A stretch of 64,000 bases of DNA from a virus. Taxonomy: Duplodnaviria > Heunggongvirae > Uroviricota > Caudoviricetes. This document shows positions 2,192 to 62,377 of this stretch, piece by piece. Position 1 is the first letter of the stretch. Each line of letters begins with the position of its first letter. A program made the position numbers and the translations under genes. The notes beneath the pieces are model-generated. The model was not told the origin of the DNA and did no database searches. It was given only the letters and a program-made list of their open reading frames with translations. Location of the stretch: positions 89,614 through 153,613 of IMG/VR virus record IMGVR_UViG_3300031993_000018; one strand, written 5' to 3'.

Positions 2192-2234
2192 ACAAAATCC
2201 CGGATGAAAGTCCGGGATTTTTCGTAAATATAGT

Positions 2235-2615
2235 ATGAAAAGATTTACAAACAGTGAGATTACATTTGGTGAGGAGATCCAAATCAATGACTGGCAGGTC
2301 AGACTTCCTGTCATTGTTGATGGTAAGGAGATGTCTGTTGATGATGTGAACTTCATCATAGAACCTCATTATGTGTCAGGAGAGACATTGTATCAACCTC
2401 ATATATTCATTGATGAAAGACTCCGGGACCAAGGTCTGGGATATGGAATCTACAAGGCATTCATACATGAGTTCGGGAACATATACAGTTCCCACTGGTG
2501 TAGGACAAACAACAAGGAAATTATATCCATCTTCAACAAACTTGCACTGGAAGATGACATAGTGGTGGAGAAAAACAACAAATATTATTTCGCATATCTA
2601 AAGGGTTCAAGATAA
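2235..2615 (+). CDS. Hypothetical protein
   Basis: 126 aa ORF immediately after a terminator; followed by a hairpin plus TTTTGTTATATTTAA cassette. Confidence 0.45.
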   Translation: MKRFTNSEITFGEEIQINDWQVRLPVIVDGKEMSVDDVNFIIEPHYVSGETLYQPHIFIDERLRDQGLGYGIYKAFIHEFGNIYSSHWCRTNNKEIISIFNKLALEDDIVVEKNNKYYFAYLKGSR

Positions 2616-2661
2616 TTTGAACCTTTTTTGTTATATTTAATCTGGATTATTTAATTGAATT

Positions 2662-3792: not shown

Positions 3793-3830
3793 AAAAATGA
3801 GAGGTTGTTGCCTCTCATTTTTATTTTAAT
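3793..3830. terminator. Bidirectional intrinsic terminator between convergent genes
   Basis: aaaaaaaTGAGAGGttgttgCCTCTCAttttttatttt: a perfect 8-bp stem flanked by an A-run and a T-run. Confidence 0.6.
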
Positions 3831-4758: not shown

Positions 4759-4788
4759 ATTTTTGTTATATTTATAATTGAACTTATA

Positions 4789-5889
4789 ATGTATTTATGT
4801 ATGAATAAGAATTTTTTAGAAGATTTTTTGAAGACTTACAGACCTTCAGGGTTTGAACAGGAAGGTGCTGAAGTGTTTGTCAGTAATGCCTGTGGACTCA
4901 AAGGAGTCAAGAAAGAGTTTATTGATAAGATGTGGAATGCATGTGTGAGTGTGGGTAGTGAAAAGGAGGATGCACTGAAAATCCTCATCTCCGGTCACTC
5001 TGATCAGAACTGTCTCATTGTGACTGAAATCACAAAGAATGGTTTCCTCAAGTATGCAACCCAGGGTGGATTCTCTCCAAGGACAGTAATTGATTCAGAC
5101 CTCTTTGTCATCACAAACAATGATGGTGTGAAGAAACTTATCCCCTGCTTCTGTAGTTATAAAGCAATACATATAGAAAAACCGGATGACAGAAAGAAAT
5201 GTCCAGAACATAAGGATCTCTATCTTGATTTGGGATGTACATCCAGGGAACAGGTTGAGAAACTCGGTGTACATATAGGTGACCTGGTTGTATTCAACAA
5301 CAGTGGTCTGAATATGGACTTTGGTCCTGATGGCAACTACATTGTAGGTTCAGGTCTTGATGATGGTGTTGCTTGCGGAATCGTTTATGATGTCCTGAAG
5401 AAACTTGATGAGAATGAACTCAAGGAGATGAACATCAGGGTATATGGTGCATGCATCACATCAGAGGAAACTGGTGCCAGGGGTGTTGGTCCTGTAGTAA
5501 GAAAGGTTCAGCCACATATCTCCATAGATATTGATGTATGTCATGACTGCACCAAGGAGATTGGTGAGGATGAAGGCCGGATTGCAAAGATGGGTGATGG
5601 TGCTGTCCTGAACTATGGTCCTGACAAATACAGACCTCTCAATGAAGACTTGAGACAGATTGCAAAGGATTATGACATCAAGTTGCAACTCATTGCCGGC
5701 AAGGCAGGAGGTACAAACACCAACAACATCCAGATGATGTCAGACAACTGTGCCACAACCCTGTTGAGTATCCCTTGCAGATATATGCACAGCGGAACAC
5801 ATGAGATGGTCAATAAGGATGACATTGATGGTTGTGGTCAGCTCATATACAAGTTCATCAACAAGGTAGATCCAAAGAAGTATGTATAA
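4789..5889 (+). CDS. M42-family metallopeptidase (glutamyl aminopeptidase / cellulase-M like)
   Basis: Segments GHSDQNCLIVTEITKNGFLKY, GSGLDDGVACGIV, ITSEETGARG and RYMHSGTHEM line up with the conserved metal-ligand blocks of M42/FrvX peptidases. Confidence 0.6.
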   Translation: MYLCMNKNFLEDFLKTYRPSGFEQEGAEVFVSNACGLKGVKKEFIDKMWNACVSVGSEKEDALKILISGHSDQNCLIVTEITKNGFLKYATQGGFSPRTVIDSDLFVITNNDGVKKLIPCFCSYKAIHIEKPDDRKKCPEHKDLYLDLGCTSREQVEKLGVHIGDLVVFNNSGLNMDFGPDGNYIVGSGLDDGVACGIVYDVLKKLDENELKEMNIRVYGACITSEETGARGVGPVVRKVQPHISIDIDVCHDCTKEIGEDEGRIAKMGDGAVLNYGPDKYRPLNEDLRQIAKDYDIKLQLIAGKAGGTNTNNIQMMSDNCATTLLSIPCRYMHSGTHEMVNKDDIDGCGQLIYKFINKVDPKKYV

Positions 5890-6361
5890 GTCTGAAATCA
5901 CAGATGATATGCCTGAACTTGAGAAGTTTGTCAGGCAAGAGGCAGCTGCCTATGTCAATTCCACAATCTTCTTGAGTTGTATTTCAACCAGTCACAAGAA
6001 CATTGACAGTGTTGTTGAGAAAGGTAAGGATGTTGTACCATATGTAATTAAACTATACAAGGAGAATGGTGAATACTCCAACCAGAATATGTACACACAT
6101 TTCTTCCTGATTGTCATGCAGAGACTCTATGGTAACCCATTTGATGGATATGTAGGTATGAACTTTGCAGAGAGGTATTGGTTGAAGAGATATGAGCATG
6201 GCATGCTGGATGACTATGATGAGAATACAGACAAGAAAAAGGAAGAGAATTTCATACTTGACCTGTTCCAGTGTAAGTCTATGGAAGAACTGAAGGCATT
6301 TTTTAAACCTGATTCAGTAGCATCTTATGGAGGAGGAAACAAAAACATACAGGACTCCTAA
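5882..6361 (+). CDS. Hypothetical protein
   Basis: 159 aa ORF overlapping the preceding stop. Confidence 0.45.
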   Translation: MYKSEITDDMPELEKFVRQEAAAYVNSTIFLSCISTSHKNIDSVVEKGKDVVPYVIKLYKENGEYSNQNMYTHFFLIVMQRLYGNPFDGYVGMNFAERYWLKRYEHGMLDDYDENTDKKKEENFILDLFQCKSMEELKAFFKPDSVASYGGGNKNIQDS

Positions 6362-6752
6362 ATGGAGAGAGTATTACAGTATCATCCTCTGGTGGATGAA
6401 TGAAAAGTTCCATGACCAGAATAATCTGTCTGGTTATGATGCCACACCTGTACAAAAATCCATTGATGGTAATGAGGAATATTACTCATTCTGGGTTGAG
6501 ATAGGTAATCAGGTATATGAGAAAGGTCATGAAGATTATATGAAAGACAATCCTGAAGCTGGAAAATTCTATGAAATACTCAATCCTATGAAGAAGGTTA
6601 CACTGGATGACCTACAGGAACTCAATCTCAAACTGAAGGAAGCGGGTGCTGATGAGGTGTATATTCAGACAAAAGAGATGTATGTGCATGGTCAAGCAGC
6701 TTTGTACAATTACATAAGTCCGAATATCCTACAGTTACTCATCAAAAAATAA
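6327..6752 (+). CDS. Hypothetical protein
   Basis: 141 aa ORF with a terminator hairpin directly downstream. Confidence 0.4.
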   Translation: MEEETKTYRTPKWREYYSIILWWMNEKFHDQNNLSGYDATPVQKSIDGNEEYYSFWVEIGNQVYEKGHEDYMKDNPEAGKFYEILNPMKKVTLDDLQELNLKLKEAGADEVYIQTKEMYVHGQAALYNYISPNILQLLIKK

Positions 6753-6794
6753 TTGAAGAAAGAGTCAGGAAAACCTGACTCTTTTGTTATTTTT

Positions 6795-7388
6795 ATGTTG
6801 TCAAAAAATGTATTTATTATGAGCAGACCAAACAAATGTATCAAGGATGAGAATGGAAAGGATCAGTGGATCTCCCGCAGTACTGTGGTAATACCTATTG
6901 TATTCAAGATAGACAATGAAACCGGAGACATCTACACTATTGTGGAACAGAGAGGTAATGCAGTAACCCATCCTGGTGAATGGTGTTGTCCCTGTGGATT
7001 TATAGACTGGGATGAGACTCTTGAAGAGGCCTGTCAGAGGGAAGTGAGGGAAGAGACCGGAATCATCCTCAATCAGGAAAACATCCATTTTATGTATGTC
7101 TATAGTGACCCCAAGAGTACCAATCAGACTGTTGACTTGTGGTATATGTGCTGGACAGATGCAGACATAGACACATCAAAGATTGAAACAAAGGAAGAGG
7201 TTATGGATGTAAGGTGGCTGAAGGTCGGTAAGTTATACCGGGGTAGTACATTGTTCATCTTCAACACATCAATCAAAAACTGTTATGGTACCTGGGCATT
7301 TAAGACACATGCCGGCAGAGTCATAGAGATGTTGAAAACAATTGTCAAAGATGCCAAGAATGGTAGAGTGGTTGAAGTAAATGATTAA
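6795..7388 (+). CDS. NUDIX hydrolase
   Basis: Nudix box [23 protein letters not shown] (Gx5Ex7REUxEExGU). The ORF-track start at 6753 is a TTG lying inside terminator hairpin 6761..6783, so the ATG at 6795 (or 6819) is preferred. Confidence 0.75.
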
Positions 7389-8880
7389 GAAAGGCAAATA
7401 TGAGAATATCCTGGATCATGGATATACAGTCTGGCTTGACTTCTTGCTGAATGACCAGCAGAAGGATGTCATCAAGCAGATAAATGACTTCATAACAAGT
7501 CCTACTGAATTTGCTATGACCATATCCGGATGGGCTGGAACAGGTAAGACCACCCTGATGGAAATTGTCAACAAGAGGTACTGGATGAGTCATACTGTTC
7601 ATTTTGCAGCCACTACACACAAGGCAGCAGGTGTACTCAAGGAGAAAGTAGGAAAGAAGGTATTTACTGTCAATTCACTCTTTGGAATCATGATTGAAAC
7701 CGATATGGAGGGTGAAACATATGATGTGTCCAAGAAAGCAAGGAAACTATCTGATGACAAAGTGAAACCAAACTCAATCATCATTATTGATGAGGCATCT
7801 ATGCTTTCCATCCAGAACTATATTGATGTGATTCTCAAGGCAAGAGAAAGAAAGTGCAAGATAATCTTCATAGGTGATTCAGCACAGTTGTCTCCTGTCA
7901 ATGAGGATGACATCTCCATTGTGTTCAGAAATACAGATCACAGGATAGTGGAACTCACCAAAGTGATGAGAACTGATGATGACTCCATCCTGAATGAATC
8001 CACTTCTGTAAGAACAGGTGATGGATTCACATATGAAACTCACATCAATGAAGAGGGAGATGGTGTCAGATATATCTCAAGTAAGGATACAAAAGCAATT
8101 CTTGATGTAATTGACAATCATATTGAAGGTCTGAAAGATGATCCCAATTACTTCAGGGTACTTACATACACCAATGCCAATGTGGAGAAACTGAACAGGA
8201 TGATCCGCAAGAAACTTGGTTATGACGGTCTGAATCCACAACCTGGGGAACCATTGATGGCATACAGTAACTGGGGGTATCAGGGTATGGGTCTATCAGG
8301 TGCTGTATATGTTGTGGTCAATTCGGAGGCATATACAGTCAAGAGTGTTCCTGAAATGTATGATGTCATTGTCCATAAAGAGGATGTAAGCAGAATGATA
8401 ACATACACCAATGAATCAAGATTGGATGACTACAACCTTGAAATCATTGACCTTGAGATTGAAGACTCACTGGGTATTCCTATTGATGTTCCTTTGATTG
8501 ATGTCAAGAACAACTCTCACAACAGGGAGATAGTGGTTGCCCTTGCATATGAGAAAGTCCATCAGTGGAATCTCTACAGGGAAGCGGAAAACAAAAATGA
8601 CAAACTGACCTGTCTTGATAAGATAAATGCCATTGATGACTTCCTGTTTGTCAATGACAATGTATATGACAAGTATGGAACTCTGATCCAGGCCAAGGTG
8701 ATTGACTATGGTTATGCCCATACAATCCACAAGAGTCAGGGAAGTACCTTCAGGCATGTTCTCATCAATGATGATGACATCAACCGCTGTCTTGACAAGA
8801 ATGTAAAAAAGCAGCTCAGGTATGTGGCTGTTACCAGGGCACAGAAATCAGCAAATATTATTACATCACATGTTGTTTAA
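7381..8880 (+). CDS. Dda/RecD-like SF1B DNA helicase
   Basis: Walker [10 protein letters not shown], Walker [11 protein letters not shown], and a C-terminal [13 protein letters not shown] motif typical of RecD/Dda/Pif1-type helicases. Confidence 0.8.
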
Positions 8881-25580: not shown

Positions 25581-26258
25581 ATGAAACACTATGACAGTAT
25601 TCCCAGACTCCAGGATGATGGAACACTGAAAGGAGAGATGGTCGCCGGGTACAACAAACTTGACGGTCAGAACTTCTGTGTCACATATAATTGTAGAAAG
25701 AAAACCTGGGGACCTTATGGATCCAGGACTGTCACTGTTGATGAGAACTCTGAACAGTTTGGGGACACGGTTAGATTCTTCAACAACTCCGGTTACAAGG
25801 AGATACTTGGAAATATCATCAAGGAGTATTCAGGTAAGGGAGATGTGTTCAATGGTGTTGAAGAAGTCACATTCTTCTTTGAGTGGTATGGGTGGAACTC
25901 ATTCGCTGGCAAACACAAGGAAGGTGACAAGATGCACCTGGCACTCATTGATGTGTTCCTGAAGAAGAGAGGTTATATGGAACCCAAATCATATGAGATG
26001 TGTTTCAGAAATTGCGGAATTGAACTTCCTGATCTCATATATTCCGGACCACTCAATGCAGACATTATAGAAAAGGTTCAGAACAATGACTGGACAGACC
26101 CGGATTGTTGGAATTCCAAAGTACATGAGGGTGTTGTCTTCAAAAGAACAACACTCCTGAAAGGACAGAGGAGACCATCAGTCAAGGTGAAGACCAAATG
26201 GTGGTTGGACACTCTCCACTCACTTTATACAGAAGAGGAATGTAAGAAACTTGAGTGA
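25581..26258 (+). CDS. ATP-dependent RNA/DNA ligase-like nucleotidyltransferase (small)
   Basis: Motif I KLDGQN (KxDGxN), motif IV-like EGVVFK and downstream lysines in RPSVKVKTKWW. Confidence 0.5.
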   Translation: MKHYDSIPRLQDDGTLKGEMVAGYNKLDGQNFCVTYNCRKKTWGPYGSRTVTVDENSEQFGDTVRFFNNSGYKEILGNIIKEYSGKGDVFNGVEEVTFFFEWYGWNSFAGKHKEGDKMHLALIDVFLKKRGYMEPKSYEMCFRNCGIELPDLIYSGPLNADIIEKVQNNDWTDPDCWNSKVHEGVVFKRTTLLKGQRRPSVKVKTKWWLDTLHSLYTEEECKKLE

Positions 26259-33282: not shown

Positions 33283-34074
33283 ATGGCAAAAAAGAAGGAG
33301 AATGAAGAGGAGAAGACAATCTCTCCAAGTCAGTACTTTGATTTCTTGAAGGGAGCAAAGAACATCATCACAACCGAGGCACTCAAGGAGTCATATGATG
33401 TGTTCATAAAACTGGCTGAAAAGTACCAAAAGATAGGTCAGGTGGAGTCTCTCAAGAAGCTTTGCTTCCTTGCAGACACACTGGTGAAGGAGGAGAAACT
33501 CATTGAGATGGGAATCAACACATTCATCTATAAGGACACCATTGAGGACTACATTGAGAATGTGGCAGGTAAGACCGTCAAGATTGTGGAACTCTCCAGA
33601 TATATGAGAGAGGTTCCGGATGAACTGGTGGAGACCATTGAAAAGACCAAGAGTCTCTTCAATGAGTTCTATGTAATCTTCACAGACTATACCGGTAAGG
33701 AAGAGAGAAAGATTGAGAAGGAGAGAAGGGATAAGGATCCCATCCTGTTCGGTGTGTTCAAAGACAACACCAATGTATCTGACCGCTTCTACTTCCTGGG
33801 TGACTGGGTGGATGAGTATTGTGACCTCACCCTTGACAAGATGGTTGAGCAGTACAAGTCAAAGAAGAATGTCTCACCTGTTGTAACCACAGAGATACCC
33901 AAGGATAGTGATGAACTTGTTTCAATCCTCAAGACATACAAGATTGAGGAGAAGAAGGGTAACAGTTACATAACCCTTACACCCAATGATCCGCTTCCTG
34001 TTGCCAATTACAAGGTAGAGGGTGAAAAGAAACCCGGATTCTTTAAGAAGGTCTTCAGTGTATTTAAGAACTAA
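33283..34074 (+). CDS. Hypothetical protein
   Basis: 263 aa ORF immediately upstream of the leader-family array. Confidence 0.5.
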   Translation: MAKKKENEEEKTISPSQYFDFLKGAKNIITTEALKESYDVFIKLAEKYQKIGQVESLKKLCFLADTLVKEEKLIEMGINTFIYKDTIEDYIENVAGKTVKIVELSRYMREVPDELVETIEKTKSLFNEFYVIFTDYTGKEERKIEKERRDKDPILFGVFKDNTNVSDRFYFLGDWVDEYCDLTLDKMVEQYKSKKNVSPVVTTEIPKDSDELVSILKTYKIEEKKGNSYITLTPNDPLPVANYKVEGEKKPGFFKKVFSVFKN

Positions 34075-35968: not shown

Positions 35969-37288
35969 ATGAAACTAACATTAGAGAATATTACAATCAA
36001 AGACCACAAGATTTATGACCCGGAAGGAAACTTCAGGGGAGAAATCTTGTATGAGTACATTCGTGGTTCTCATCTGTATTCAACCAATGTGGAGACATCA
36101 GATGAAGACCAGGGAGGTATCTACATTATGCCTAACAGCACCATATTGGGTCTTGGTCTTGACTATCAGAATGAGATAAAGGATAAGAGTAATGACAAGT
36201 GCATCTGGGAGTTGGGAAGATTCCTGGAACTTGCCCTGTCTTCAAACCCAACTGTCCTGGAGGCACTCTTTGTTCCTGGTGATAAGGTCATCTATGAACA
36301 TCCTGTCATCAAGGAGATCCGTTCACACCGTGATGAGTTTATCACCAAGAAGTGTTTTGCACCATTTGGAGGTTATGCTTCAAGTCAGATAAAGAAGGCT
36401 CAGGGTCAGAACAAGAAGATCCACTGGGATATTGCCCAGATGGTAAGGAAGACTCCTATGGACTTCTGTTATACCTTGAAGAACCAGGGTAGTCAGCCTA
36501 TGCAGGACTGGTTGGATGAAAGAGGACTTGATCAGAGAAACTGTGGTCTGGTCAATATTCCCAATATGCCTGATATGTTCGGTGTGTATTATGACTGGGG
36601 TCAGCACATCAGACTTGCCGGTATCACCAAGGAGTATTTCACCAATAAGGAGAATTACTACAAGGATAAGTTTATCAAGACTATGGACATGTATCTTGGA
36701 AATGAATATATCCTCCATGAGGATGGAAACCTTGAGGATGAACTTGAATATATCTGGGATCATCACTCTGAACCTCATGGTGGTTACTGTGGAATCATCT
36801 CACCCAATGAGGATTCCAACACAGTAAGGTTCTCTTCTGTTGTCAAGGGTGAGAAACCCATCTGTTATATGTCTTACAATGCCAATGCATATATATCACA
36901 TTGTAAGGAGTATAGGGAGTATGAGGACTGGAAGGAACACAGAAATCCAGCAAGGTATGAATCCAATATGGAGGGAGAGAAGTCAGGCAATGCAGATATG
37001 AAATATGACTGCAAGAATATGATGCACTGCTTCAGGTTGATGGCAATGGCAAAGGAGATTGCAGAAGGAAAGGGTGTGATCCTGGATCGCGCTGGTATTG
37101 ACAGGGAGTTTCTCCTGGATGTTAGAAACCGTAAGTATGGTTATTCTGAACTCCAGAAGAAGATGCTTGACCTGAAGGATGAGATGGATGCTGCCATTGA
37201 GAAATCTACCATCAAGGATGAGATTGATCCCCAAATGGTCAATGACCTCCTCCTGGAAGCAAGAAAACATTTTAATTCAAAAGATTAA
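35969..37288 (+). CDS. Pol-beta superfamily nucleotidyltransferase (GSHLYST...SDED motif)
   Basis: Near the N-terminus, IRGSHLYSTNVETSDEDQGG fits the GS...(S/T)D.D nucleotidyltransferase active site. The ~440 aa protein probably carries a helical substrate-binding extension. Confidence 0.5.
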   Translation: MKLTLENITIKDHKIYDPEGNFRGEILYEYIRGSHLYSTNVETSDEDQGGIYIMPNSTILGLGLDYQNEIKDKSNDKCIWELGRFLELALSSNPTVLEALFVPGDKVIYEHPVIKEIRSHRDEFITKKCFAPFGGYASSQIKKAQGQNKKIHWDIAQMVRKTPMDFCYTLKNQGSQPMQDWLDERGLDQRNCGLVNIPNMPDMFGVYYDWGQHIRLAGITKEYFTNKENYYKDKFIKTMDMYLGNEYILHEDGNLEDELEYIWDHHSEPHGGYCGIISPNEDSNTVRFSSVVKGEKPICYMSYNANAYISHCKEYREYEDWKEHRNPARYESNMEGEKSGNADMKYDCKNMMHCFRLMAMAKEIAEGKGVILDRAGIDREFLLDVRNRKYGYSELQKKMLDLKDEMDAAIEKSTIKDEIDPQMVNDLLLEARKHFNSKD

Positions 37289-38266: not shown

Positions 38267-39112
38267 ATGTATTTCAAAAACCTAAAAGAAAAGTGCGAAT
38301 ATTACCGTTCGCTTACTGATTATAAACTGATGTCAAACTCTTATGTCCTGGTGATGGTGGATGGTCACTGTTTCAGCAAGATGATCAAGAATAAGTTTGA
38401 CAAACCATTTGATGATGAGTTCATCAATATGATGAATGAGACTGCAAAGTATCTGTGTGAACAGGTACAGGGAGTTAAGTTTGCATACACACAGTCTGAT
38501 GAGATTTCACTTCTCATCACAGACTTTGACACACCAGTAACCGATGCATACTTTAGTTTCAGACTCTGTAAGATGCAGTCACTCATTGCTGCACTGGCAA
38601 CTGCCAAGTTCAACCAGTTATATGCCATCCATAACATTGGTAAGGAAGTGAGTGGTGGCAGCAACAAGATTGAACTTAAGAAGACTATTCCACTCTGTAC
38701 ATTTGACTGTAAGGTATGGACTGTTCCAAATGCAAATGACGCCTATGCCTGGTTCCTCTACAGACAGACTGACTGTATCAAGAACTCAAAGGCACAGACA
38801 GCCCAGACATATCTTCCACACAAACAGTTGGTGGGTCTGACAGCAGATGATATGATTGCCAAACTCAAGGATGAGCAGAACATTGACTGGTATGAGTTTG
38901 TCAATGGTAAGAAGTATGGAAGACTCATCAGGAAAGTGGAGACTCCTATGGAGAAAGACCTTTCCAATGGACTACACATTGAATACATAAGGAATGTATG
39001 GACACCTGTTGAGATAACAGACTTGAGAGAGGATGGGTCACAAGTGAGAGATCTGATTCCTGAACTGTTCAGACCTGGTGTTAATATAAAAGAAGAAATC
39101 ACAGAAGAATGA
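38267..39112 (+). CDS. Thg1-like protein (tRNA-His guanylyltransferase family 3'-5' nucleotidyltransferase)
   Basis: YVLVMVDGHCFSKMIKNKFDKPFDDEFINMMNETAKYL and FAYTQSDEISLLI parallel the Thg1/TLP N-terminal catalytic blocks (R.DGR.FH.F...KP.D....M...A...AYG.SDE.S..L). Confidence 0.65.
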   Translation: MYFKNLKEKCEYYRSLTDYKLMSNSYVLVMVDGHCFSKMIKNKFDKPFDDEFINMMNETAKYLCEQVQGVKFAYTQSDEISLLITDFDTPVTDAYFSFRLCKMQSLIAALATAKFNQLYAIHNIGKEVSGGSNKIELKKTIPLCTFDCKVWTVPNANDAYAWFLYRQTDCIKNSKAQTAQTYLPHKQLVGLTADDMIAKLKDEQNIDWYEFVNGKKYGRLIRKVETPMEKDLSNGLHIEYIRNVWTPVEITDLREDGSQVRDLIPELFRPGVNIKEEITEE

Positions 39113-42543: not shown

Positions 42544-42607
42544 TTAATAGAAGTACATTTGAAGAAGGTTGTCTGTGAAGATAACCTTTTTTGTTATATT
42601 TACATAT

Positions 42608-43471
42608 ATGATTATACCCCCAATTAAAATACAAGGAAAGAAGACCAAACTGGTTCCGAGAATAATGGAGATTGCCCAGGACCAACTGGATACACATCCG
42701 GAGATTGACACCTGGGTTGAACCCTTCCTGGGATCTGGAGTGGTGGCCTTCAACTGTCCGGACAGAATAAAGAATGTCATAGTCAATGACATCAACCCCC
42801 ATATCATCAATCTATACAAACAGATTGCATGTGGATTTATCACCCCCGAAATGGTGAAAACTGTATTCTCACAACACAATGATGCACTACTGAAAGGAGG
42901 ATATACATACTATAATAAAATCAAAGACAGATTCAATAATTATTTTGATCCTATGGATTTCCTCTTCCTTACCAGGACTGGATTCAATGGGGTGATGAGA
43001 TTCAATGGTTCAGGAAAATGGAATGTCCCATTCTGTAAACTCAACAACAGGTTGTCCACAAAAGTCATAGAAGACCTTTCCAGCTCCATAGAGGAACTTT
43101 CTCACCTCTTCCTGAGCAAGTCATTCACTTTCTATAACACTTCGTTTGAGAAGGTTTTAGAGGCCTCTCCTGCCAATTCAATTTTCTATTGTGATCCTCC
43201 TTATTATGGACTCCAGGTTCAGTACTTCAAAGGGTGGGAAAAGGAAGATGAAATAAGACTCAATGAAATGTTAAAGGATAAGGTGTTCATCTACTCAACC
43301 TGGCTTAATGATGGAAAGAAAGACAACCCTATGATAGATGAATACTGGAAAGACTTTGTGGTGGAGAAGATACCTCACAAATACAATGTGGCAGAGAAGT
43401 CCACAGAGAGAAACCAAGTGTTTGAGGGACTCATATACAGACCGGCGGAAAACAAGTTTTCATTGTTCTAA
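42608..43471 (+). CDS. Dam-class (D12) N6-adenine DNA methyltransferase
   Basis: N-terminal KIQGKKTKLVPRI (compare Dam KWAGGKRQLLPEL), motif I EPFLGSGVVAFN, catalytic FYCDPPYYG. The ORF-track start at 42569 lies inside the terminator/promoter cassette, so the ATG at 42608 is preferred. Confidence 0.7.
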   Translation: MIIPPIKIQGKKTKLVPRIMEIAQDQLDTHPEIDTWVEPFLGSGVVAFNCPDRIKNVIVNDINPHIINLYKQIACGFITPEMVKTVFSQHNDALLKGGYTYYNKIKDRFNNYFDPMDFLFLTRTGFNGVMRFNGSGKWNVPFCKLNNRLSTKVIEDLSSSIEELSHLFLSKSFTFYNTSFEKVLEASPANSIFYCDPPYYGLQVQYFKGWEKEDEIRLNEMLKDKVFIYSTWLNDGKKDNPMIDEYWKDFVVEKIPHKYNVAEKSTERNQVFEGLIYRPAENKFSLF

Positions 43472-47150: not shown

Positions 47151-48368
47151 ATGATTAAACTTACAAAAGGTAAAGTTACCGCTATCATTTGCGGTGTGTT
47201 CACAATCATCGTTCTCTGTCTGTTGGGCAGTATAGGTGAGGATGTAAAGAACAAGACAATCGTTGTTAACCAGTATCCCATTTCAGGTCGTATGGCCTAT
47301 TGGACTGAACCTGGTTTCAAGTGGCAGTTGTTCGGTAAGACAACTACTTATTACAAGACCGAGCAGTTGTGGTTCGGTGGTAAGGACATCAATGACAACC
47401 CCATTGGATCTCCCATCCCGGTGAAGTTCTATGACGGTTCTGATGGTATGATTTATGGTTCTCTCCGTGTTGAGCTTCCTACAGACACAAAGTATCTGGC
47501 AAAGATTCAGAGAGAGTATGACAGTATGGACCGACTCATGAATGACCTGGTTAAGCAGACAGTAAGTAAGGTTATATATGCGACAGGTGCTTTGATGACA
47601 GGATTTGAGTCTTATGCAGAGAAAAAGAATGACTTCTTGGAGTATGTTCAGGACCAGCTCGCTCATGGTGTATATAAGACAAATGTTAGGATAGAAGAGG
47701 TTAAGGACCAGGCAGGTAATATAGAGAAACTCAAGATTGCCAGTCTTATACCCGACACAGCATCTGCAAATGGTTACAAGAGATCTGAGACTTCACCCTT
47801 TATGGATTATGGAATTAAGGTGAACCAGGTATCTATTTCAACAATTGACTATTCACAGAAGGTTAAGGACCAGATTGCACAGCAGCAGGAGTCAAATATG
47901 TTGGCACAGACTGCAAAGGCCAAGGCTGCAGCCGCAGCACAGGAGGCAATCCGTGCAGAGGAGGAAGGTAAGGCAAAGGCTGCTCAGGCAAAGTGGGCAC
48001 AGGAGACCATCAAGGCTACAGAGGTGACAAAGGCAGAGCAGGAGTATGAGGTTGCCGTCACCCAGGCAAAGCAGCAGAGGGAGACCGCCAAGCTTGCAGC
48101 AGAGAAGGCAGAGTTTGATAAGAAGAGAATTATCGCCCAGGGTGAGGCTGAGGCCGCAGCTAACAGAGCAAAGGTCAATGCTGGTCTGACTCCTCAGGAG
48201 AGGGCAGAGTGGGACTTCAAGACCAAGGTTGGTGTCGCAGAGGCAATCTCCAAGGTTAATCTTCCTACAATCGTAATGACCGGTTCAGGTTCAAATGGTA
48301 GCTCATCAGCACTGGATGCAATGGGTCTGAAGATGCTGACCGATCTGGCAGACAAAATGTCCAAGTAA
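47151..48368 (+). CDS. SPFH/band-7 (stomatin/HflKC/flotillin-like) membrane protein
   Basis: N-terminal TM, central SPFH-like region, and a long Ala/Glu/Lys/Gln-rich coiled coil (AKAKAAAAAQEAIRAEEEGKAKAAQAKWAQE...) typical of HflK/flotillin C-termini. Confidence 0.6.
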   Translation: MIKLTKGKVTAIICGVFTIIVLCLLGSIGEDVKNKTIVVNQYPISGRMAYWTEPGFKWQLFGKTTTYYKTEQLWFGGKDINDNPIGSPIPVKFYDGSDGMIYGSLRVELPTDTKYLAKIQREYDSMDRLMNDLVKQTVSKVIYATGALMTGFESYAEKKNDFLEYVQDQLAHGVYKTNVRIEEVKDQAGNIEKLKIASLIPDTASANGYKRSETSPFMDYGIKVNQVSISTIDYSQKVKDQIAQQQESNMLAQTAKAKAAAAAQEAIRAEEEGKAKAAQAKWAQETIKATEVTKAEQEYEVAVTQAKQQRETAKLAAEKAEFDKKRIIAQGEAEAAANRAKVNAGLTPQERAEWDFKTKVGVAEAISKVNLPTIVMTGSGSNGSSSALDAMGLKMLTDLADKMSK

Positions 48369-48473
48369 CTATAAGTAAAACTTGAAAAAAGACCATCCGA
48401 AAGGGTGGTCTTTTTTTGTTATATTTTTTATAAAATGACATAAATATCTATATAGTGTTTATAAGTTTTTCAA

Positions 48474-48746
48474 ATGGCAGACGATATTGAAACCATATCT
48501 TACATAAACCCTGGTGACGGACAGAATCATCCCATTGATGCTGTTACAGTTGGAGGTAAAACCATACCGGGTGCAACATCTCTCCTTCCATCAGTGTCTA
48601 ATTCAGACAATGGAAAGGTGTTGAGAGTTGTCAATGGACAGTGGGTCATTGTTACTCCTGCCATCATCTACACAGGTGATGGTGAGCCATCCGACAGTGA
48701 AGGAAATGATGGAGACATCTACATACAAACAAATATAGAGATCTAA
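48474..48746 (+). CDS. Hypothetical small protein, probably tail-fibre associated
   Basis: 90 aa, Gly/Asp-rich, directly upstream of the fibre gene. Confidence 0.4.
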   Translation: MADDIETISYINPGDGQNHPIDAVTVGGKTIPGATSLLPSVSNSDNGKVLRVVNGQWVIVTPAIIYTGDGEPSDSEGNDGDIYIQTNIEI

Positions 48747-48748
48747 TT

Positions 48749-50719
48749 TTGGCACAGTATATCAAGATAGGAGGTAGATGGAAACAAATCAGGTCTGTCT
48801 ATAAGAAGGTAAACGGTACCTGGATCCCCCAAGAGTATTATAATTTTGATGACAATATCCACTTCTTTAATGCAGCAGAGGTGGATGTTGATGTTTTCAC
48901 TATTGTATCAGAAGACTCTTATACCGGTAAACAGTTCTATCTTGTTGCAAAGTTCAATGGTACAAGAGTGTATCCTACCTGGTCAATCACATCAGGAAAT
49001 GAATATGCCACAGTCAACAGTAATGGTAAGGTGACCATACTTGCCGGAGCCCACAATAACACTATCACAGTTCATGCTTCACTCAATGGTCTGGGAAAGT
49101 CCAAGACCATCACAGTGTCTTACAGCAACCAGTTGTCAATTGAGGGTGCTGACACAATGTCAGGAACATCGGGTAACCTGATTGCCCTTTACAACTCAAC
49201 CATAGTTGTTCCTACCTGGTCAATCACATCAGGAAGTCAGTATGCCGAGATATATCCGACAGGTCAAATCTCCATTATGGATTCAGGACAGATTACAGTA
49301 TCTGCCACATATGATGGGTATACTGCAACCAAGGTCATCACTCTTGTCTATGATGAGAACAGTTCAGCATATACAGATGTTGATCCCGACACCGGTGCAG
49401 TCACAACAACCGAGACTACAACAACAGTTGACCCGGAGACAGGTGCAACAATAGAGACAACAACATCTACAACAACCAACACTGACGGTTCTACATCAGA
49501 GACATCAACAGAGACAACAACAAACACTGATGGTTCTACAACAACCACAGAGACAACTACCAATTCAGATGGTAGCAGCAGTTCATCAACCACATCAGTG
49601 TCTTCAGCAGATTCAGATGGTGCAGTCACAACAGAGACCAGCACCACAACCAATAATGCAGATGGTACATCAACAGAGACCAACTCTACAACAGTTGAGA
49701 ATGAAGACGGATCTTCAACATCAACATCATCCACTGTAAACTATGATGAGAATGGAAATGAGACATCATCATCCTCATCAACAGTGAATGTTTCATCAGC
49801 AGATTCTGACGGTGCGGTTACGACAGAGACCAGCACAACAACAAACAATGCTGACGGTACATCATCAGAAAGTACATCCACACTGGTGGAGAATGAGGAT
49901 GGTTCATCATCATCACAGTCACAAACAGTCAACTATGATGAGAATGGTGACACCACAGGATCTACAACCAATGAGACCAATGTCAATTCTGACGGTTCAT
50001 CACAGAGTTCTACAACAAACTATGATGCATCAGGTGACCCGACAGACACAACCAATGTGGGAACAGACACCACAGGTAATGTGGACACCCAGAACATCGA
50101 GTATGATGAGGAGGGTAACCAGACAGTAACAGGTTATGACATCAACACAGAGGCAAGTGAAGGTGAAGGTAAGGAGATTAGTGGTGATGGAGTCAATACA
50201 GAGTTTGTTCCTTTTGATGACCAGGGTTCAGGATTCATCTGCCACATCAGATTCAAGACTGTTCAGTCAGAACAGCCGAGACCTCCTCTTGTTGAGGACA
50301 TAGATGACAGTGGTACAAACTATCTTTATAATGTAATGTCTGCCAAGTCACCTACAAAGATTGGTAACTACTATCCTGGCTTTGACATAAGATGGGCAAT
50401 CTCCAAGACCAATGCTTCCAGTGGAGTAATCCAGTTCAGGTATGCCCCCGCCAATTCAGGAAACACCCAGACTAACCTCACACCATATGGAGATAATGAG
50501 TATGACATCACAGTGACTTATGATCCCCATAAGTTATACAACAATTACAAGCTCAGGGTCACATCAGCACTGGGAAGTATCCAGACCATTCAGGCAGACA
50601 AGGAGTTTTCCACACTGAATATGGACTTCACAATAGGTTGCGCCCTTTCATCACAAGGTACACCATACAGACATGCCAATGTGACAATATATGAGTTCAC
50701 GATAACCAAGTTACATTAA
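48749..50719 (+). CDS. Tail fibre / receptor-binding adhesin with Big_2 Ig-like domains, Thr/Ser-rich tandem repeats and a C-terminal beta-rich domain
   Basis: Two Big_2-like blocks (ATVNSNGKVTILAGAHNNTITVHASLNGLGKSKTITVSY and AEIYPTGQISIMDSGQITVSATYDGYTATKVITLVY). A ~62-aa unit SSADSDGAVTTETSTTTNNADGTS...VENEDGSS...TVNYDENG is repeated twice, alongside shorter TTNTDGST repeats. Confidence 0.6.
   Translation: MAQYIKIGGRWKQIRSVYKKVNGTWIPQEYYNFDDNIHFFNAAEVDVDVFTIVSEDSYTGKQFYLVAKFNGTRVYPTWSITSGNEYATVNSNGKVTILAGAHNNTITVHASLNGLGKSKTITVSYSNQLSIEGADTMSGTSGNLIALYNSTIVVPTWSITSGSQYAEIYPTGQISIMDSGQITVSATYDGYTATKVITLVYDENSSAYTDVDPDTGAVTTTETTTTVDPETGATIETTTSTTTNTDGSTSETSTETTTNTDGSTTTTETTTNSDGSSSSSTTSVSSADSDGAVTTETSTTTNNADGTSTETNSTTVENEDGSSTSTSSTVNYDENGNETSSSSSTVNVSSADSDGAVTTETSTTTNNADGTSSESTSTLVENEDGSSSSQSQTVNYDENGDTTGSTTNETNVNSDGSSQSSTTNYDASGDPTDTTNVGTDTTGNVDTQNIEYDEEGNQTVTGYDINTEASEGEGKEISGDGVNTEFVPFDDQGSGFICHIRFKTVQSEQPRPPLVEDIDDSGTNYLYNVMSAKSPTKIGNYYPGFDIRWAISKTNASSGVIQFRYAPANSGNTQTNLTPYGDNEYDITVTYDPHKLYNNYKLRVTSALGSIQTIQADKEFSTLNMDFTIGCALSSQGTPYRHANVTIYEFTITKLH
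49598..49965 (+). repeat. Two tandem copies of a ~186-nt unit inside the fibre gene
   Basis: The DNA starting at 49598 (gtgtcttcagcagattcagatggtgcagtcacaacagagaccagcacc...) recurs from 49784 (gtgaatgtttcatcagcagattctgacggtgcggttacgacagagaccagcaca...) with about 85 % identity. Confidence 0.6.
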
Positions 50720-50858
50720 AACGGTTGCGACAACGAAGCACGAATCACCAATTCCAAAAGGAGTTGGTGATTTTTTTGTTAAAAAGTACGAAAATATTTG
50801 GAGGTATCAAATATTTCTTGTATATTCGTGACAGAAACCAATAAGAAAGAGGGTATAT

Positions 50859-51065
50859 ATGAATACAAAGGAAGAGATAATTGAGTTCATCAAGAATGTG
50901 AAGACAACCTCTGCAAGAAACAGTATGGGTTGTTCTGAGAACTGGTACAATGCATATTTTGCAATCTCTAAAACATTCACAATGGAGGAAATTGAGGCGA
51001 TGAGTGAGAAGGAACTGAATAATCTGGTCAAACTGGCCGACAATATTGCAGAAGGTTTATATTAA
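50859..51065 (+). CDS. Hypothetical protein
   Basis: 68 aa ORF behind extended promoter 50797..50828. Confidence 0.4.
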   Translation: MNTKEEIIEFIKNVKTTSARNSMGCSENWYNAYFAISKTFTMEEIEAMSEKELNNLVKLADNIAEGLY

Positions 51066-51076
51066 AACTGACAATT

Positions 51077-51289
51077 ATGACAAAGAAATCAATCCTGGTG
51101 CGCAAGATGCGCAGGGCATACAACAATAAGCACAACAGAGAGTATTCATTATTCAAGGGTTACCCCAGTGACACATACTTTGGTTACTACTCCTTTGATG
51201 AAATGAAGAAGAGTGTACTCAAAGATTTCAGAGAGTATTATGGAAAGGGATTGAAGAGATACAGATTCAAAAAATTAACACATTGCTGA
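51077..51289 (+). CDS. Small basic protein
   Basis: 70 aa, K/R-rich. Confidence 0.35.
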   Translation: MTKKSILVRKMRRAYNNKHNREYSLFKGYPSDTYFGYYSFDEMKKSVLKDFREYYGKGLKRYRFKKLTHC

Positions 51290-51357
51290 CAATCTGTCAT
51301 ACAAACCCGACGGTACAGCATTTGTATTATATATTGAGGATTTAAAACAACAAAGAT

Positions 51358-52197
51358 ATGGTTATAAATTACACCAACCTTAATGAGAACATCAACATCT
51401 ATTTCAAGGAGATCCGCAACTTCGCATCCCTGACAAGAGAAGATGAGGTAAGACTGTTCTCAAGAATCAAGACAGGTGACAAGTCAGCACAGGCTGAAAT
51501 CTTCAACAGGATGGCCAAGCTGGCGGTCAACATTGCCAAGACATACACAGGTGATGCAGACCTTTTGGAAGATCTCATCCAGGAGGCAAACATTGGTATC
51601 CTTACCGCCATTGACAAGTTTGACCTCAATTCCGGTTTCAGATTTTCATCATATGCCCGTTACTGGATGAAGGCCGCCATTTCCAAGTATCTTGATGAAA
51701 TGGGTGTGGTACGTCACTGCAATCCCCATCTTGTTGACCTGGCCAACAAAATCCGTGAGAAGTTCTACAAGGAGAACCAAAGGGATATCACCAGTGTGGA
51801 ACTGATGGATATGTTGGAGGATGCAGGTGAGGTGGTTGATGACATCAAGTCAATCACCAGCATCACCAATGTGAGGATTGATCTTCCTTATGATTGTGAT
51901 GAGTCCGGAAAGCCAAAGGGCGAATATGGAGACTTCGCAGACCGTACTGCCTGTGACAATGGGTTTGTAGAAAAGGAAAGAGCCGAGGAACTTTCAGAAG
52001 ACATCAGACGAAGACTCTCAAGACTCACTCCGAGGGAGCAGCAGTTGGTCCTGTTGATGTACGGTTTCGTCACCGGAGAAGAAATGGGTTATGACGCTGT
52101 TACAGAAAGGTGGAATGAAGGTAAGCCCGAGAAGGAACAGCTCACACAGGAGAGAGTCCGTCAGATCATCAAGGGTGCACTCAAAAAGATGAAGTAA
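51358..52197 (+). CDS. Sigma-70 family RNA polymerase sigma factor
   Basis: Region 2 LLEDLIQEANIGILTAIDKFDLNSGFRFSSYARYWMKAAI (compare DLIQEGNIGLMKAVDKFD...F.TYA.WWIRQAI); region 4 LTPREQQLVLLMYGF...ERVRQIIKGALKKM. Confidence 0.7.
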   Translation: MVINYTNLNENINIYFKEIRNFASLTREDEVRLFSRIKTGDKSAQAEIFNRMAKLAVNIAKTYTGDADLLEDLIQEANIGILTAIDKFDLNSGFRFSSYARYWMKAAISKYLDEMGVVRHCNPHLVDLANKIREKFYKENQRDITSVELMDMLEDAGEVVDDIKSITSITNVRIDLPYDCDESGKPKGEYGDFADRTACDNGFVEKERAEELSEDIRRRLSRLTPREQQLVLLMYGFVTGEEMGYDAVTERWNEGKPEKEQLTQERVRQIIKGALKKMK

Positions 52198-52384
52198 TGA
52201 CACAGGTTCAGATACAAATGCTTGAGAGTGCAATCCAGACTCATCAGAGTTCCCTTTACAGGGATGCGGAGGCATACAAGCGTCAGAACAACACTGAAGC
52301 AGTCAAGGACTGTCTTGCTGAGATAAAGAAGTTTGAAGACTTGAAAAAGTCACTTAAATCAATCCCTGTAGAAAAGTAATCACT

Positions 52385-52663
52385 ATGTTCCCATTTTTTA
52401 TCATCCCCTGGATACACTGGGCAATCAACAGAGAGGATCTCCCGGAGATAGACTCATCAAAAGAAACATTAAAGACAGCTATATATTTTGCCATCATCAC
52501 CCCCATATGGTTTGGATTGGGCATATGGTTCATTCCGAATATAGTAAGTGCCGGCAACCCGACTTTTGATATCGGACTGATTAAAATGGTAATATGTATA
52601 TTGGTATGGTTAGCAGTCTATGCTGCCGCAGGTGTAATAGGAATCAAGAAGATATTCAAATAA
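52385..52663 (+). CDS. Small membrane protein
   Basis: Three hydrophobic helices. Confidence 0.35.
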   Translation: MFPFFIIPWIHWAINREDLPEIDSSKETLKTAIYFAIITPIWFGLGIWFIPNIVSAGNPTFDIGLIKMVICILVWLAVYAAAGVIGIKKIFK

Positions 52664-55766: not shown

Positions 55767-56354
55767 ATGAATAATATAGTCAGAGAATCTATAATGGCAG
55801 GAATTCTCATTGGTCTGGGTGCATATGGTTACCTGGCCCTGGGTGGAATCCCCGGTGCAATCATCTTTGCCTTCGGTCTGATATGTGTTGTCCTTATGGA
55901 AGCATATCTCTATACCGGAAAGGCAGGAGTCCTCACCAACATCAAAAATGTGACTACCATCTGGTTTTTCAACATCCTTGCCTGTGGACTCATAGGTCTG
56001 ATGGTCTGGTATCTGGGTGGAAAACCTGTTGAGGTAGCACAGGAAATTGTCGCAAACCGTCTCGCGACAGAACCTCTCAAGGTATTCCTCAAGGCACTTG
56101 GTTGCGGACTCATCATTGATCTCTCCTGTGCCTCATACAGAGGTAGCAAGAGTCTCCTTCCCATTCTTTTCGGTGTCCCATTGTTCATCATACTGGGATT
56201 CTACCATTCAATTGCAGATGTGGTTTACATTGTTGCTGCATGGGACTGGTCAAAGGATCTCATCTGGTATTACCCCCTGATTGTAGTGGGTAACTATGTG
56301 GGATGCAACATCAGAAGACTGGTATATGTAACCAGATGGATTCAGATAGGATAA
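55767..56354 (+). CDS. Multi-TM channel-like protein, possible FNT (formate/nitrite transporter) family
   Basis: GLICVVLMEAYLYTG resembles FocA SLGLILCVVCGADLFTS (L-F-T signature). LGFYHSIADVVYI resembles FocA SGFEHSIANMFM (conserved His of TM5). At 196 aa it is shorter than canonical FNT proteins. Confidence 0.35.
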   Translation: MNNIVRESIMAGILIGLGAYGYLALGGIPGAIIFAFGLICVVLMEAYLYTGKAGVLTNIKNVTTIWFFNILACGLIGLMVWYLGGKPVEVAQEIVANRLATEPLKVFLKALGCGLIIDLSCASYRGSKSLLPILFGVPLFIILGFYHSIADVVYIVAAWDWSKDLIWYYPLIVVGNYVGCNIRRLVYVTRWIQIG

Positions 56355-59271: not shown

Positions 59272-59883
59272 ATGGATAAACTTAGTTATGCATTAGGTGT
59301 CAGCGTTGGTCAGAACCTGATAACACAGTTCGGAATCAAGGATTTGAATTTCGAGGAATTCACAGAGGGATTGAAAGTAATGTTCGGTAAGGTAGAAAAC
59401 AAGATGTCTATTGATGACATCAACAATACCATAAATGAACACATAAAGAAGATCCATGATGAGAAGAAAAAAGAACAGAAGAAGATCAATGAGAATAACC
59501 TGAAGGAAGGAAAGGCATATCTTACAGAGAATGCCGAGAAGGATGATGTTACTACAACCAAGTCAGGACTCCAGATGAAGGTACTTAAGGCAGGACCTGG
59601 ATACATCTCTCCGGGACCACATTCAAGAGTAAGAGTCCACTATGAAGGCAAACTCATTGATGGAACAGTGTTTGATTCATCATACCAGAGAGGTGAACCT
59701 GTTGAGTTTGGCCTGGATCAGGTGATTCCTGGTTGGACAGAAGGTGTACAACTGATGAAGGAGGGAGATGTATTTGAATTCACCATCCCATCTGAATTGG
59801 GTTATGGTGAGGTAGGAGTTCCAGGTCATATTCCTGGTAATAGTGTCCTGATCTTCAAGGTGGAACTTATAAAGATATTGTAA
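59272..59883 (+). CDS. FKBP-type peptidyl-prolyl cis-trans isomerase
   Basis: GLQMKVLKAGPG...VHYEGKLIDGTVFDSSYQRGEPVEFGLDQVIPGWTEGVQLMKEGDVFEFTIPSELGYGEVGVPGHIPGNSVLIFKVELIKI is a canonical FKBP domain. Confidence 0.75.
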   Translation: MDKLSYALGVSVGQNLITQFGIKDLNFEEFTEGLKVMFGKVENKMSIDDINNTINEHIKKIHDEKKKEQKKINENNLKEGKAYLTENAEKDDVTTTKSGLQMKVLKAGPGYISPGPHSRVRVHYEGKLIDGTVFDSSYQRGEPVEFGLDQVIPGWTEGVQLMKEGDVFEFTIPSELGYGEVGVPGHIPGNSVLIFKVELIKIL

Positions 59884-61693: not shown

Positions 61694-62377
61694 ATGAAGA
61701 ATATAGAAGACATAAACACCAAATATCCAAGGACATATCATCTGCCTTGGTCACCCGGAGCCACTTCTGATGACAAGAAGTTGTCCTCAGACTGGTTTGA
61801 TGCAGATGAATGGAAAGGAAAGGAGATTGTGATCACTGAGAAGCTTGACGGTGAGAACACCGCCTTCTGGAATGGTGATGTCTTCAGCAGAAGTCACTCG
61901 GTTCCCACCAGGTCACCCTGGTCAAGAAACCTTTGGGACAAAGATGGACTCCTGTGGGTGATAAAAGACAAGATCTCCCCGGAAGAGATTGTCTATGGTG
62001 AGAACCTTTATGGTGAACACAGCATACACTATGACAGACTTCCGGCGTATTTCTTCGCCTTCGCCTGCCGCAGGGAAAATCAGTGGTGGAGTTGGGATGA
62101 TGTTGTTCTGATGGCGGATATTCTGAATGTACCGACAGTTCCTGTCCTGTGGAGAGGAAGGTTGGAGTCAGAGTCTGAACTGAAGGAGATGATCTCCAGG
62201 TTTATGTCCCAACCATCGGCATTCGGTGATACAAAGGAAGGAGTGGTGATAAGAAAGGTCGAAGGATTTGACAACAAGGACTTCTCCAAGAATGTCGCCA
62301 AGTATGTGAGGGAAAATCATGTCCAGACTGACCAACACTGGACAAAGAACTGGAAAAGAGCAAAGTTAATAGTTTGA
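61694..62377 (+). CDS. ATP-dependent RNA ligase-like nucleotidyltransferase
   Basis: N-terminal KYPRTYHL, motif I KLDGEN, motif IV EGVVIRK, plus downstream Lys residues. Confidence 0.55.
   Translation: MKNIEDINTKYPRTYHLPWSPGATSDDKKLSSDWFDADEWKGKEIVITEKLDGENTAFWNGDVFSRSHSVPTRSPWSRNLWDKDGLLWVIKDKISPEEIVYGENLYGEHSIHYDRLPAYFFAFACRRENQWWSWDDVVLMADILNVPTVPVLWRGRLESESELKEMISRFMSQPSAFGDTKEGVVIRKVEGFDNKDFSKNVAKYVRENHVQTDQHWTKNWKRAKLIV

Follow-up and report, generated by a model that had tools for sequence, protein, structure and literature searches.

A stretch of 64,000 nucleotides (nt) from the tailed-phage record IMGVR_UViG_3300031993_000018 (positions 89,614 to 153,613 of that record, hereafter the window) contains a gene for a sigma-70 family factor of 279 amino acids (aa), which raises the question of what kind of sigma factor this is and which promoters it would read. 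Bacteroidota, to which the host of this phage appears to belong, have an unusual transcription system that relies on the sigma factor sigma-AB and uses no classical -10 and -35 boxes, and we know of almost nothing on how the large phages of abundant gut Bacteroidota program their gene expression. We find that the gene encodes a complete sigma factor of a phage-specific clade with replaced promoter-reading residues, that its operon is headed by a host-type promoter, and that the clade sits in a landscape of three promoter classes, one of which, restricted to this phage lineage, is the leading candidate target.

The open reading frame (ORF) is uninterrupted, starts with ATG, and begins at region 1.2, with no upstream extension possible. 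Pfam places region 1.2 at aa 12-42 (Sigma70_r1_2, E = 1.5e-5, above the gathering score) and region 2 at aa 49-112 (Sigma70_r2, E = 3.2e-15, 56.1 bits against a cut-off of 24), and matches region 4 in two stretches (Sigma70_r4, E = 5.2e-6, 26.3 bits against a cut-off of 24.1) because of an insertion in the turn of its helix-turn-helix (HTH). PHROG 351 ('RNA polymerase sigma factor') covers aa 5-279 with E = 1.1e-39, and the protein aligns over its full length with the NCBIfam models of RpoD and RpoS, at ~122 bits. The best solved relatives are Firmicutes SigA (8x6f, 7ckq, and 7l7b; E about 1e-29, best 1.9e-29); aa 7-278 align to SigA residues 94-354, a span that begins with region 1.2 and extends through region 4.2, and the protein therefore has no region 1.1. 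An AlphaFold2 (AF2) model, built with a 23-sequence family alignment as input (mean predicted local distance difference test score, pLDDT, 72), displays the helices of sigma 1.2, sigma 2 (aa 42-114), sigma 3 (aa 123-167), and sigma 4 (aa 214-278, including helices at 225-234, 245-253, and 264-278), with a disordered stretch at aa 171-211 that corresponds to the region 3.2 linker. The sigma 3 helices are thus modelled even though the Pfam region 3 model has no match on the protein. Foldseek searches with this model matched only SigA, sigma-S, and sigma-32 chains, SigA and sigma-S being at the top. Taken together, these comparisons show a complete sigma-70 family factor with a group 1/2 domain layout, in agreement with the first-pass annotation, which had recognized region 2 and region 4 motifs and made its assignment depend on a region 2.4 helix. 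The 2.3-2.4 helix (aa 96-114) is present, aligns to SigA without a gap, and is helical in the AF2 model.

The same models narrow down the sigma group. Both region 2 and the region 4 HTH lie above the curated thresholds of the sigma-70 superfamily, and the sole NCBIfam cut-off passed is that of TIGR02937, a superfamily-level and extracytoplasmic function (ECF)-level model (83.3 bits against 42.9). The four regions are arranged as in group 1/2 sigmas: 1.2, 2, 3, and 4, region 3 being flanked by regions 2 and 4. Cellular members of these groups, Firmicutes SigA and proteobacterial RpoS, share this order and are the best sequence and fold matches, but the window sigma is ~28-30% identical to them, lacks both region 1.1 and the non-conserved region, carries the HTH-turn insertion, and stays far below every RpoD/RpoS/SigA equivalog cut-off. 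The best RpoD model reaches 122 bits against a cut-off of 572, and RpoS models 121.4 against 378.7 and 105.1 against 394 (TIGR02394/PRK05657), which places the protein outside both the group 1 primary sigmas and the RpoS equivalogs. Group 4 (ECF) sigmas, which have regions 2 and 4 only, were ruled out by the presence of regions 1.2 and 3; the group 3 models score below those of RpoD and RpoS (RpoH, 87.7 bits against 323; SigBFG, 62.5 against 234); and a minimal late sigma of the T4 gp55 type was ruled out by the full region 4 and by the RpoD-like PHROG 351 as the best PHROG match. The first-pass annotation had proposed a comparison of ECF with group 3/4 factors, and the protein falls in neither, its architecture and best scores being group 1/2-like. 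With a full-length profile match to PHROG 351 and a viral context, it groups with the phage RpoD-like sigmas.

A large protein search returned 611 relatives, the best 120 of which are 50-95% identical, come from metagenomes only, and lie on contigs of up to 178 kb. Contigs of 121 kb (JGI) and 13 kb (Logan) encode the identical protein. Scanning IMG/VR with the single protein as query gave no match, and scanning it with the family alignment found relatives on viral contigs of 344,746 bp (IMGVR_UViG_3300021387_000661) and 411,604 bp (IMGVR_UViG_3300028888_000043). Sigmas in deposited phage genomes are about 24-30% identical to the window sigma, the best of them about 30%. Across 185,579 bacterial and archaeal species, scanned at one genome per species, no close family member was found, and the full-length matches among the cellular candidates listed are about 25-31% identical. 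Scored against the family profile, members reach 398 bits or more, compared with 141 for the best cellular sigma and 112 for sigma-AB; sigma-AB (sigma-ABfr) is described as the primary sigma of Bacteroidota (Vingadassalom et al. 2005, as cited in PMC7366714). A recent copy of the host sigma-AB was rejected on this profile score and an identity of 28%. No second sigma of this family turned up when the window was searched with the profile. The gene neighborhood is conserved in seven genomes, in the order D12 methylase, SLT, Band_7, (a ~660-aa protein), sigma, WYL_2, FKBP, and a formate/nitrite transporter-like gene.

From the profile gap, the lack of a close cellular homolog, the viral-contig relatives, and this synteny, we conclude that the protein represents a phage-specific sigma clade of a lineage of very large phages rather than a recent copy of a host gene; the gene almost certainly belongs to a very large phage. 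Its phage origin, already part of the first-pass annotation, is also supported by the dense, small genes on one strand, the PHROG matches of the window, and the size of the relatives' contigs (345-412 kb). A cellular or plasmid sigma on a misassigned contig could draw on the observation that neither the window nor the flanking DNA examined shows a capsid, portal, or terminase gene, but it is hardly credible given the genome scan, the IMG/VR viral contigs of the relatives, and the phage-typical gene content and architecture.

Residue conservation was read from a family alignment of 121 members. The equivalents of sigma-70 Y430 and W434 (Y99 and W103 in the window sigma), the core-binding motif DLIQEAN.G, and the equivalents of E585, R586, R588, and Q589 are invariant. 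This conservation of melting, core-binding, and region 4.2 residues indicates a protein under the constraints of a working sigma, and we consider it almost certain, judging from the conserved core-binding and DNA-reading residues, that the phage sigma is functional. Other DNA-reading positions have changed. We take Y430 and W434 to act in melting, Q437 to contact position -12, R584 to contact position -31, and H455 and E458 to read the TG of an extended -10 element. The Q437 equivalent is Ala, Ser, or Cys and never Gln in the family (A106 in the window sigma), and the R584 equivalent, a Gln here, is Arg in 1 of the 121 members. H124 and D127 occupy the H455 and E458 positions.

A host-type reference for these positions is the sigma-AB of a Paludibacteraceae metagenome-assembled genome (L017; 285 aa, starting MRQLKISESITQRNS, about 200 bits to the RpoD/RpoS models). 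The window sigma aligns to it end to end at 28% identity, and the reference retains Q437, R584, and the canonical HTH turn, with Asn and Ala at the H455/E458 positions. The phage protein thus does not qualify as a sigma-AB: length (about 280 aa) and the lack of region 1.1 are the only characters common to both proteins, beside the alignment itself, the same host, and the sigma-AB-type promoters on the window DNA. The insertion in the turn of the region 4.2 HTH, EGKPEKEQ, is modelled with a pLDDT of about 84, and TQERVRQI of the recognition helix aligns to both SigA and sigma-AB. Compared with the canonical turn, this segment is of the same length in 9 of the 121 members, longer by 6-10 aa in 78, by 21-22 aa in 7, and by 28-29 aa in 27. 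In the bolder reading given below, it might provide an added contact to DNA or to the beta-flap, or protect the phage sigma from a phage inhibitor that targets this region in the host sigma-AB, region 4.

Phage-encoded RpoD-like sigmas of jumbo phages are an established category (PMC7824862; PHROG 351), and a sigma is an expected gene type for a jumbo phage. The window sigma resembles them in being a full-length sigma-70-type protein of a very large phage in which no phage RNA polymerase has been seen so far, and in its presumed recruitment of the host core to phage promoters. It differs in its low identity (about 24-30%) to any deposited phage sigma, in the replaced Q437/R584 equivalents and variable HTH-turn insertion of its clade, and in a Bacteroidota host whose promoters are not of the sigma-70 type. 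What is new here is an uncharacterized clade in huge Bacteroidota phages, and the replaced residues and the insertion are modestly unusual.

How the sigma would be expressed is suggested by the head of its operon (Table 1), where a sigma-AB-type promoter stands at the orthologous position in 7/7 genomes. The sigma is therefore probably made by the host holoenzyme from a host-type promoter, as expected for a later-acting factor. The -7 box of this promoter is TTCG in 4/7 genomes and the canonical TTTG in 3/7; the variant could reflect a weak or regulated promoter, or self-regulation. The AT-rich GTATTATATATTG directly before the sigma gene is a possible internal promoter, and the two small downstream genes, orf60 and orf92, are probably cotranscribed with sigma. 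The small-protein region noted in the first pass does consist, downstream, of real ORFs. The tail-fiber neighbor that it named could not be substantiated: the 656-aa protein encoded upstream matched nothing in Pfam (to E 0.1), PHROGs, PDB sequences, or deposited phage genomes, is missing in one relative, and is separated from sigma by a terminator, a promoter, and two small ORFs.

Promoters of the host type, which we call class 1, occur in the window in the general form TTTG-N20-TAnnTTTG, with nine exact copies of TTTG, a ~20-nt spacer, and TTAT[AC]TTTGTA, all on the plus strand. These sites lie 28-41 nt 5' of a start codon, with one at 120 nt, and agree with the published sigma-ABfr consensus, in which TAnnTTTG occupies -7 and TTTG -33, and with the shortness of Bacteroides 5' untranslated regions (PMC7366714, PMC9723704). 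In the phages of this lineage, class 1 promoters are unusually uniform and extended (AAATTTGGTAGT...TTATCTTTGTA). The sigma-AB promoters proposed in the first-pass annotation are accordingly borne out in the extended or bipartite form, which is enriched; plain TANNTTTG is not enriched across the window (60 observed, 55 expected), nor are classical TTGACA/TATAAT promoters (29 found, 28.7 expected). A Bacteroidota host is indicated by the sigma-AB-type promoters and by a DUF3575 gene that lies immediately 5' of the window.

A second conserved class of promoter-like elements, also anticipated in the first pass, has the consensus TTGTTAT[AT]TTT (TTGTTATATTT, TTGTTATATTTA) and reads as an extended -10 element (TGnTATATT). 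Relative to the sigma-AB -7 box, it misses the final G, and there is no -35 box. No upstream box is conserved at these sites because a hairpin, whose stem sequence differs from site to site, usually occupies this position. The window contains 14 matches against 3.5 +/- 1.9 expected, and all 23 sites in 193 kb of lineage DNA are on the coding strand. A hairpin with a free energy of -10 kcal/mol or lower precedes 18/23 of these sites, compared with 20% of background positions, and the element usually follows directly on the terminator, 17-60 nt 5' of a start codon. It is kept before the orthologous FKBP gene in 6/7 genomes and before the methylase gene in 2, despite ~50% protein divergence. At site 4763, in the divergent intergenic region beside the minus-strand gene 3826-4758, the element is free of a hairpin, which argues that class 2 is a signal of its own and not merely a terminator tail.

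Before the D12 methylase gene, the ATG follows the start of the class 2 motif by 17-19 nt (42591-42610 in the window; 3864-3883 in locus L088). If TATATT is the -10 element, the methylase mRNA would be leaderless or nearly so, and the longer, TTG-started methylase ORF (42569) probably does not represent the true start. When IMG/VR was scanned for the class 2 14-mer and for CATAAATANNTATATAG, most of the matches listed were due to chance, but the scans did yield loci L108 and L288 from lineage contigs. A promoter-dense stretch of ~600 nt on L108 (5600-6200), which comes from a 345-kb IMG/VR contig, carries class 1, class 2, and CATAAATA elements, two of each; at one of the sites, class 2 is merged with class 1 (TTGTTATATTTGTA). 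The stretch is not followed by a long ORF.

The third class, CATAAATA(NN)TATATAG, which we take to resemble T4 late promoters, is conserved in four genomes before a pair of genes encoding proteins of 90 aa and roughly 550-720 aa, and 7/11 occurrences of CATAAATA are intergenic, an enrichment. The larger protein of the pair has repeated N-terminal segments and a long acidic repeat region rich in Thr and Ser; in the window it is the 656-aa one, whose translation shows these parts and a C-terminal domain. Like it, the 90-aa protein matches nothing in the databases. One relative, L335, lacks the pair. A T4-late-like promoter would suit a late gene.

The reading towards which we lean is one of redirection. 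The host holoenzyme would transcribe the sigma operon from its sigma-AB-type promoter, and the phage sigma, we infer, would subsequently bind the host core RNA polymerase and redirect it to phage promoters that sigma-AB reads poorly, with the class 2 elements TTGTTATATTTA as leading candidate targets. Such a mechanism is consistent with reviews on jumbo phages that do without an RNA polymerase of their own (PMC7824862, PMC13282480). The class 2 assignment itself is more tentative. It is suggested by the co-occurrence of sigma and motif in the lineage, by the changed specificity residues, including His and Asp at the TG-reading positions (H455/E458) where sigma-AB has Asn and Ala, and by the cultured Bacteroides siphophages B40-8 and B124-14 (92 kb), in which class 2 is not found and the bipartite sigma-AB motif occurs at a similar density, 1.6-1.7 per 10 kb.

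Several observations weigh against redirection to class 2. The link between sigma and motif is one that we infer, and the two siphophages are close relatives that amount to about one control and are sigma-free per annotation, not per search. Part of the class 2 conservation, TTTTTTGTTA, also appears in a terminator tail without the rest of the motif. The TG-reading positions of region 3.0 vary within the family (R/D, Q/D, R/W, S/Y) and the motif is nearly constant; a test for co-variation between these residues and the motif was negative, the motif being unchanged in 6/7 genomes. Conserved -35-reading residues are likewise unexpected in a sigma dedicated to promoters without a -35 box. Finally, since no structural gene was seen in the window, the promoters cannot be assigned to timing classes. 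The temporal switch envisaged in the first-pass annotation, with host sigma-AB promoters driving most cargo genes and the phage sigma a second class, is plausible, and both classes are real; the co-variation test lends no support to its link between sigma and the second class.

The conserved region 4 residues would also fit if the phage sigma were a substitute for the host factor, reading class 1 and sustaining transcription when sigma-AB is shut off, sequestered, or outcompeted. The two proteins share a domain layout, near-equal length (279 and 285 aa), and an end-to-end alignment, the invariant E585, R586, R588, and Q589 equivalents are readers of a TTG-type upstream box, and the class 1 promoters are unusually uniform and extended. 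We nevertheless consider substitution unlikely, given the 28% identity, RpoD/RpoS model scores below those of sigma-AB, and the family-wide replacement of the residues for positions -12 and -31 (Q437 and R584) that sigma-AB keeps; it would also leave class 2 without a reader. Less likely than either redirection or substitution is a late sigma that drives CATAAATA(NN)TATATAG and hence late or structural genes. The intergenic enrichment of CATAAATA and its conservation 5' of the 90-aa and ~660-720-aa gene pair would fit such a role. Promoters of the T4 late type are, however, read by minimal gp55-type sigmas without region 4, unlike the window sigma with its full and constrained region 4, and the few CATAAATA sites in the available DNA add to making this role improbable. 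Both minimal and RpoD-like sigmas have been reported in group 2 jumbo phages (PMC7824862). Ranked lower still, self-regulation would make the TTCG -7 box of the sigma operon the sigma's own recognition site. The form TTTG-N18-22-TAnnTTCG occurs only 5' of the sigma operon in four loci (window 50797-50828; L003 9689; L089 9105; L333 8757 and 9089) and nowhere else in them, but the canonical TTTG stands at the same place in 3/7 genomes, and the lack of any other TTCG site in 193 kb would leave a regulon of one, so that we regard this role as quite improbable.

If redirection holds, the phage sigma would act as the classical phage sigmas do, replacing the host sigma on the host core and switching the promoter class. 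The sigmas of known temporal cascades, T4 gp55, SPO1 gp28/gp34, and phiEco32 gp36, are truncated or highly diverged, gp55 lacking region 4 and gp36 being ECF-like. The window sigma differs from them as a complete four-region protein, a sequence comparison that is limited to the PHROG scan. A bolder version, which we regard as doubtful, is that the clade forms a new full-length sigma specificity class of huge Bacteroidota phages that reads -35-less TGnTAnnTTTA promoters behind terminators; the loss of the Q437/R584 contacts and the variable 6-29-aa HTH-turn insertion may have enabled it. As a system that could be tested in vitro, the window is well defined: it has one phage sigma with a promoter of the host type in front, plus two more classes of conserved promoter-like elements. 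Should the TTGTTATATTTA class be the target of the sigma, the two would form an orthogonal sigma/promoter pair for the engineering of Bacteroides, and the Bacteroidota phylum would have a first example of a phage temporal switch.

Table 1. Sigma gene, its operon, and promoter-like elements (window coordinates unless another locus is named)
Feature	Position	Strand	Remarks
Sigma-70 family gene, 279 aa, regions 1.2-2-3-4, no region 1.1	51358..52197	+	ORF, Pfam, RpoD/RpoS, PHROG 351, SigA, AF2
Region 1.2 (aa 12-42)	51391..51483	+	Pfam Sigma70_r1_2; SigA alignment from residue 94
Region 2 (aa 42-114), including 2.3-2.4 helix RFSSYARYWMKAAISKYL	51481..51699	+	Pfam, SigA, family alignment, AF2
Region 3 (aa 123-167), then disordered 3.2 linker (171-211)	51724..51858	+	AF2 helices, pLDDT, alignments
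Region 4 (aa 214-279), recognition helix LTQERVRQI	51997..52194	+	Pfam, SigA, family alignment, AF2
8-aa insertion EGKPEKEQ (aa 254-261), turn of region 4.2 HTH	52117..52140	+	sigma-AB, SigA, and family alignments
Intrinsic terminator, 14-bp stem and T-run	50742-50773 or 50742..50778	+	Strong; closes transcription unit of the 656-aa gene
Sigma-AB-type promoter TTTG-N20-TATATTCG, TTCG variant of -7 box	50797..50828	+	30 nt before ATG at 50859
orf68, first gene of sigma operon	50859..51065	+	Homolog in L088
orf70	51077..51289	+	
AT-rich -10-like element GTATTATATATTG	51324..51336	+	22 nt before sigma ATG; similar in L003, L089
orf60 (start overlaps sigma stop codon) and orf92	52197..52663	+	
Class 1 exact -7 boxes	15387, 22397, 28427, 35934, 40637, 41360, 43561, 55139, 60880	+	TTTG box ~20 nt upstream
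Class 2 elements	715, 2628, 4763, 6784, 9992, 11475, 42591, 48416, 58398, 59235	+	Most directly 3' of a terminator hairpin
Class 2 promoter segment TATATTTA			Last position A
T4-late-like element CATAAATATCTATATAG	48439..48455	+	Before 90-aa and 656-aa gene pair; also in L003, L089, L288
90-aa and 656-aa ORF pair	48474-50719; L003 7356-9614; L288 4873-7309		

The window as a whole is about 94% coding, with nearly all genes on the plus strand and many of them small. Most gene functions were assigned through PHROG families. The enzymes include a Dda-like helicase, an RlaP-type nucleotidyltransferase, a Dam methylase, an IMPDH/GMP-reductase-like protein, and an M42 peptidase, alongside an SPFH protein; further genes encode two RNA ligases, a Thg1-like protein, thymidine and thymidylate kinases, NUDIX hydrolases, and a PnuC-like transporter. 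No structural, packaging, or further transcription factor gene was detected in the 64 kb, and a PHROG sweep of 89 further window proteins identified no structural or transcription protein. By megablast, 24 kb of the window had no match in INPHARED. The only convincing minus-strand gene, 3826-4758, encodes a 310-aa protein that is without a Pfam match and weakly resembles a PHROG major head protein (E = 9.5e-5).

Among the host-like accessory genes are those for the IMPDH/GMP-reductase-like protein (2662-3792), the M42 aminopeptidase (4789-5889), the SPFH/Band_7 protein (47151-48368), the formate/nitrite transporter-like protein (about 55767-56354), and the FKBP-type isomerase (59272-59883), several of which lie directly 3' of class 2 elements. 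A tRNA-Ser gene (anticodon GCT, 1149-1237), the only RNA gene found by ARAGORN or Rfam, has CATAAATA on either side (1007 and 1239). A scattered set of RNA repair and modification genes (25581-26258, 35969-37288, 38267-39112, and 61694-62377), composed of the two RNA ligases, the RlaP-type nucleotidyltransferase, and the Thg1-like tRNA-His guanylyltransferase, may serve as a defense against host tRNA-cleaving systems. The 263-aa protein encoded at 33283-34074 strongly matches a PHROG transposase family (phrog_10081, E = 4.4e-74), and its gene may be a mobile element within the phage genome.

Upstream of the window, on the 121-kb contig L006, positions 3802-8734 encode the DUF3575 protein (a Bacteroidota outer-membrane family), several unannotated proteins of 200-400 aa, and an NAD-dependent epimerase, and ~3 kb (772-3802) are without a called gene. 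In locus L334 (1-6914), from one relative, two genes near sigma lie on the minus strand, one for a GH2 glycosidase (657 aa) and one for a 1048-aa Fib_succ_major-domain protein; with a gene for a 1276-aa protein, they form an unusual cargo beside the conserved block.

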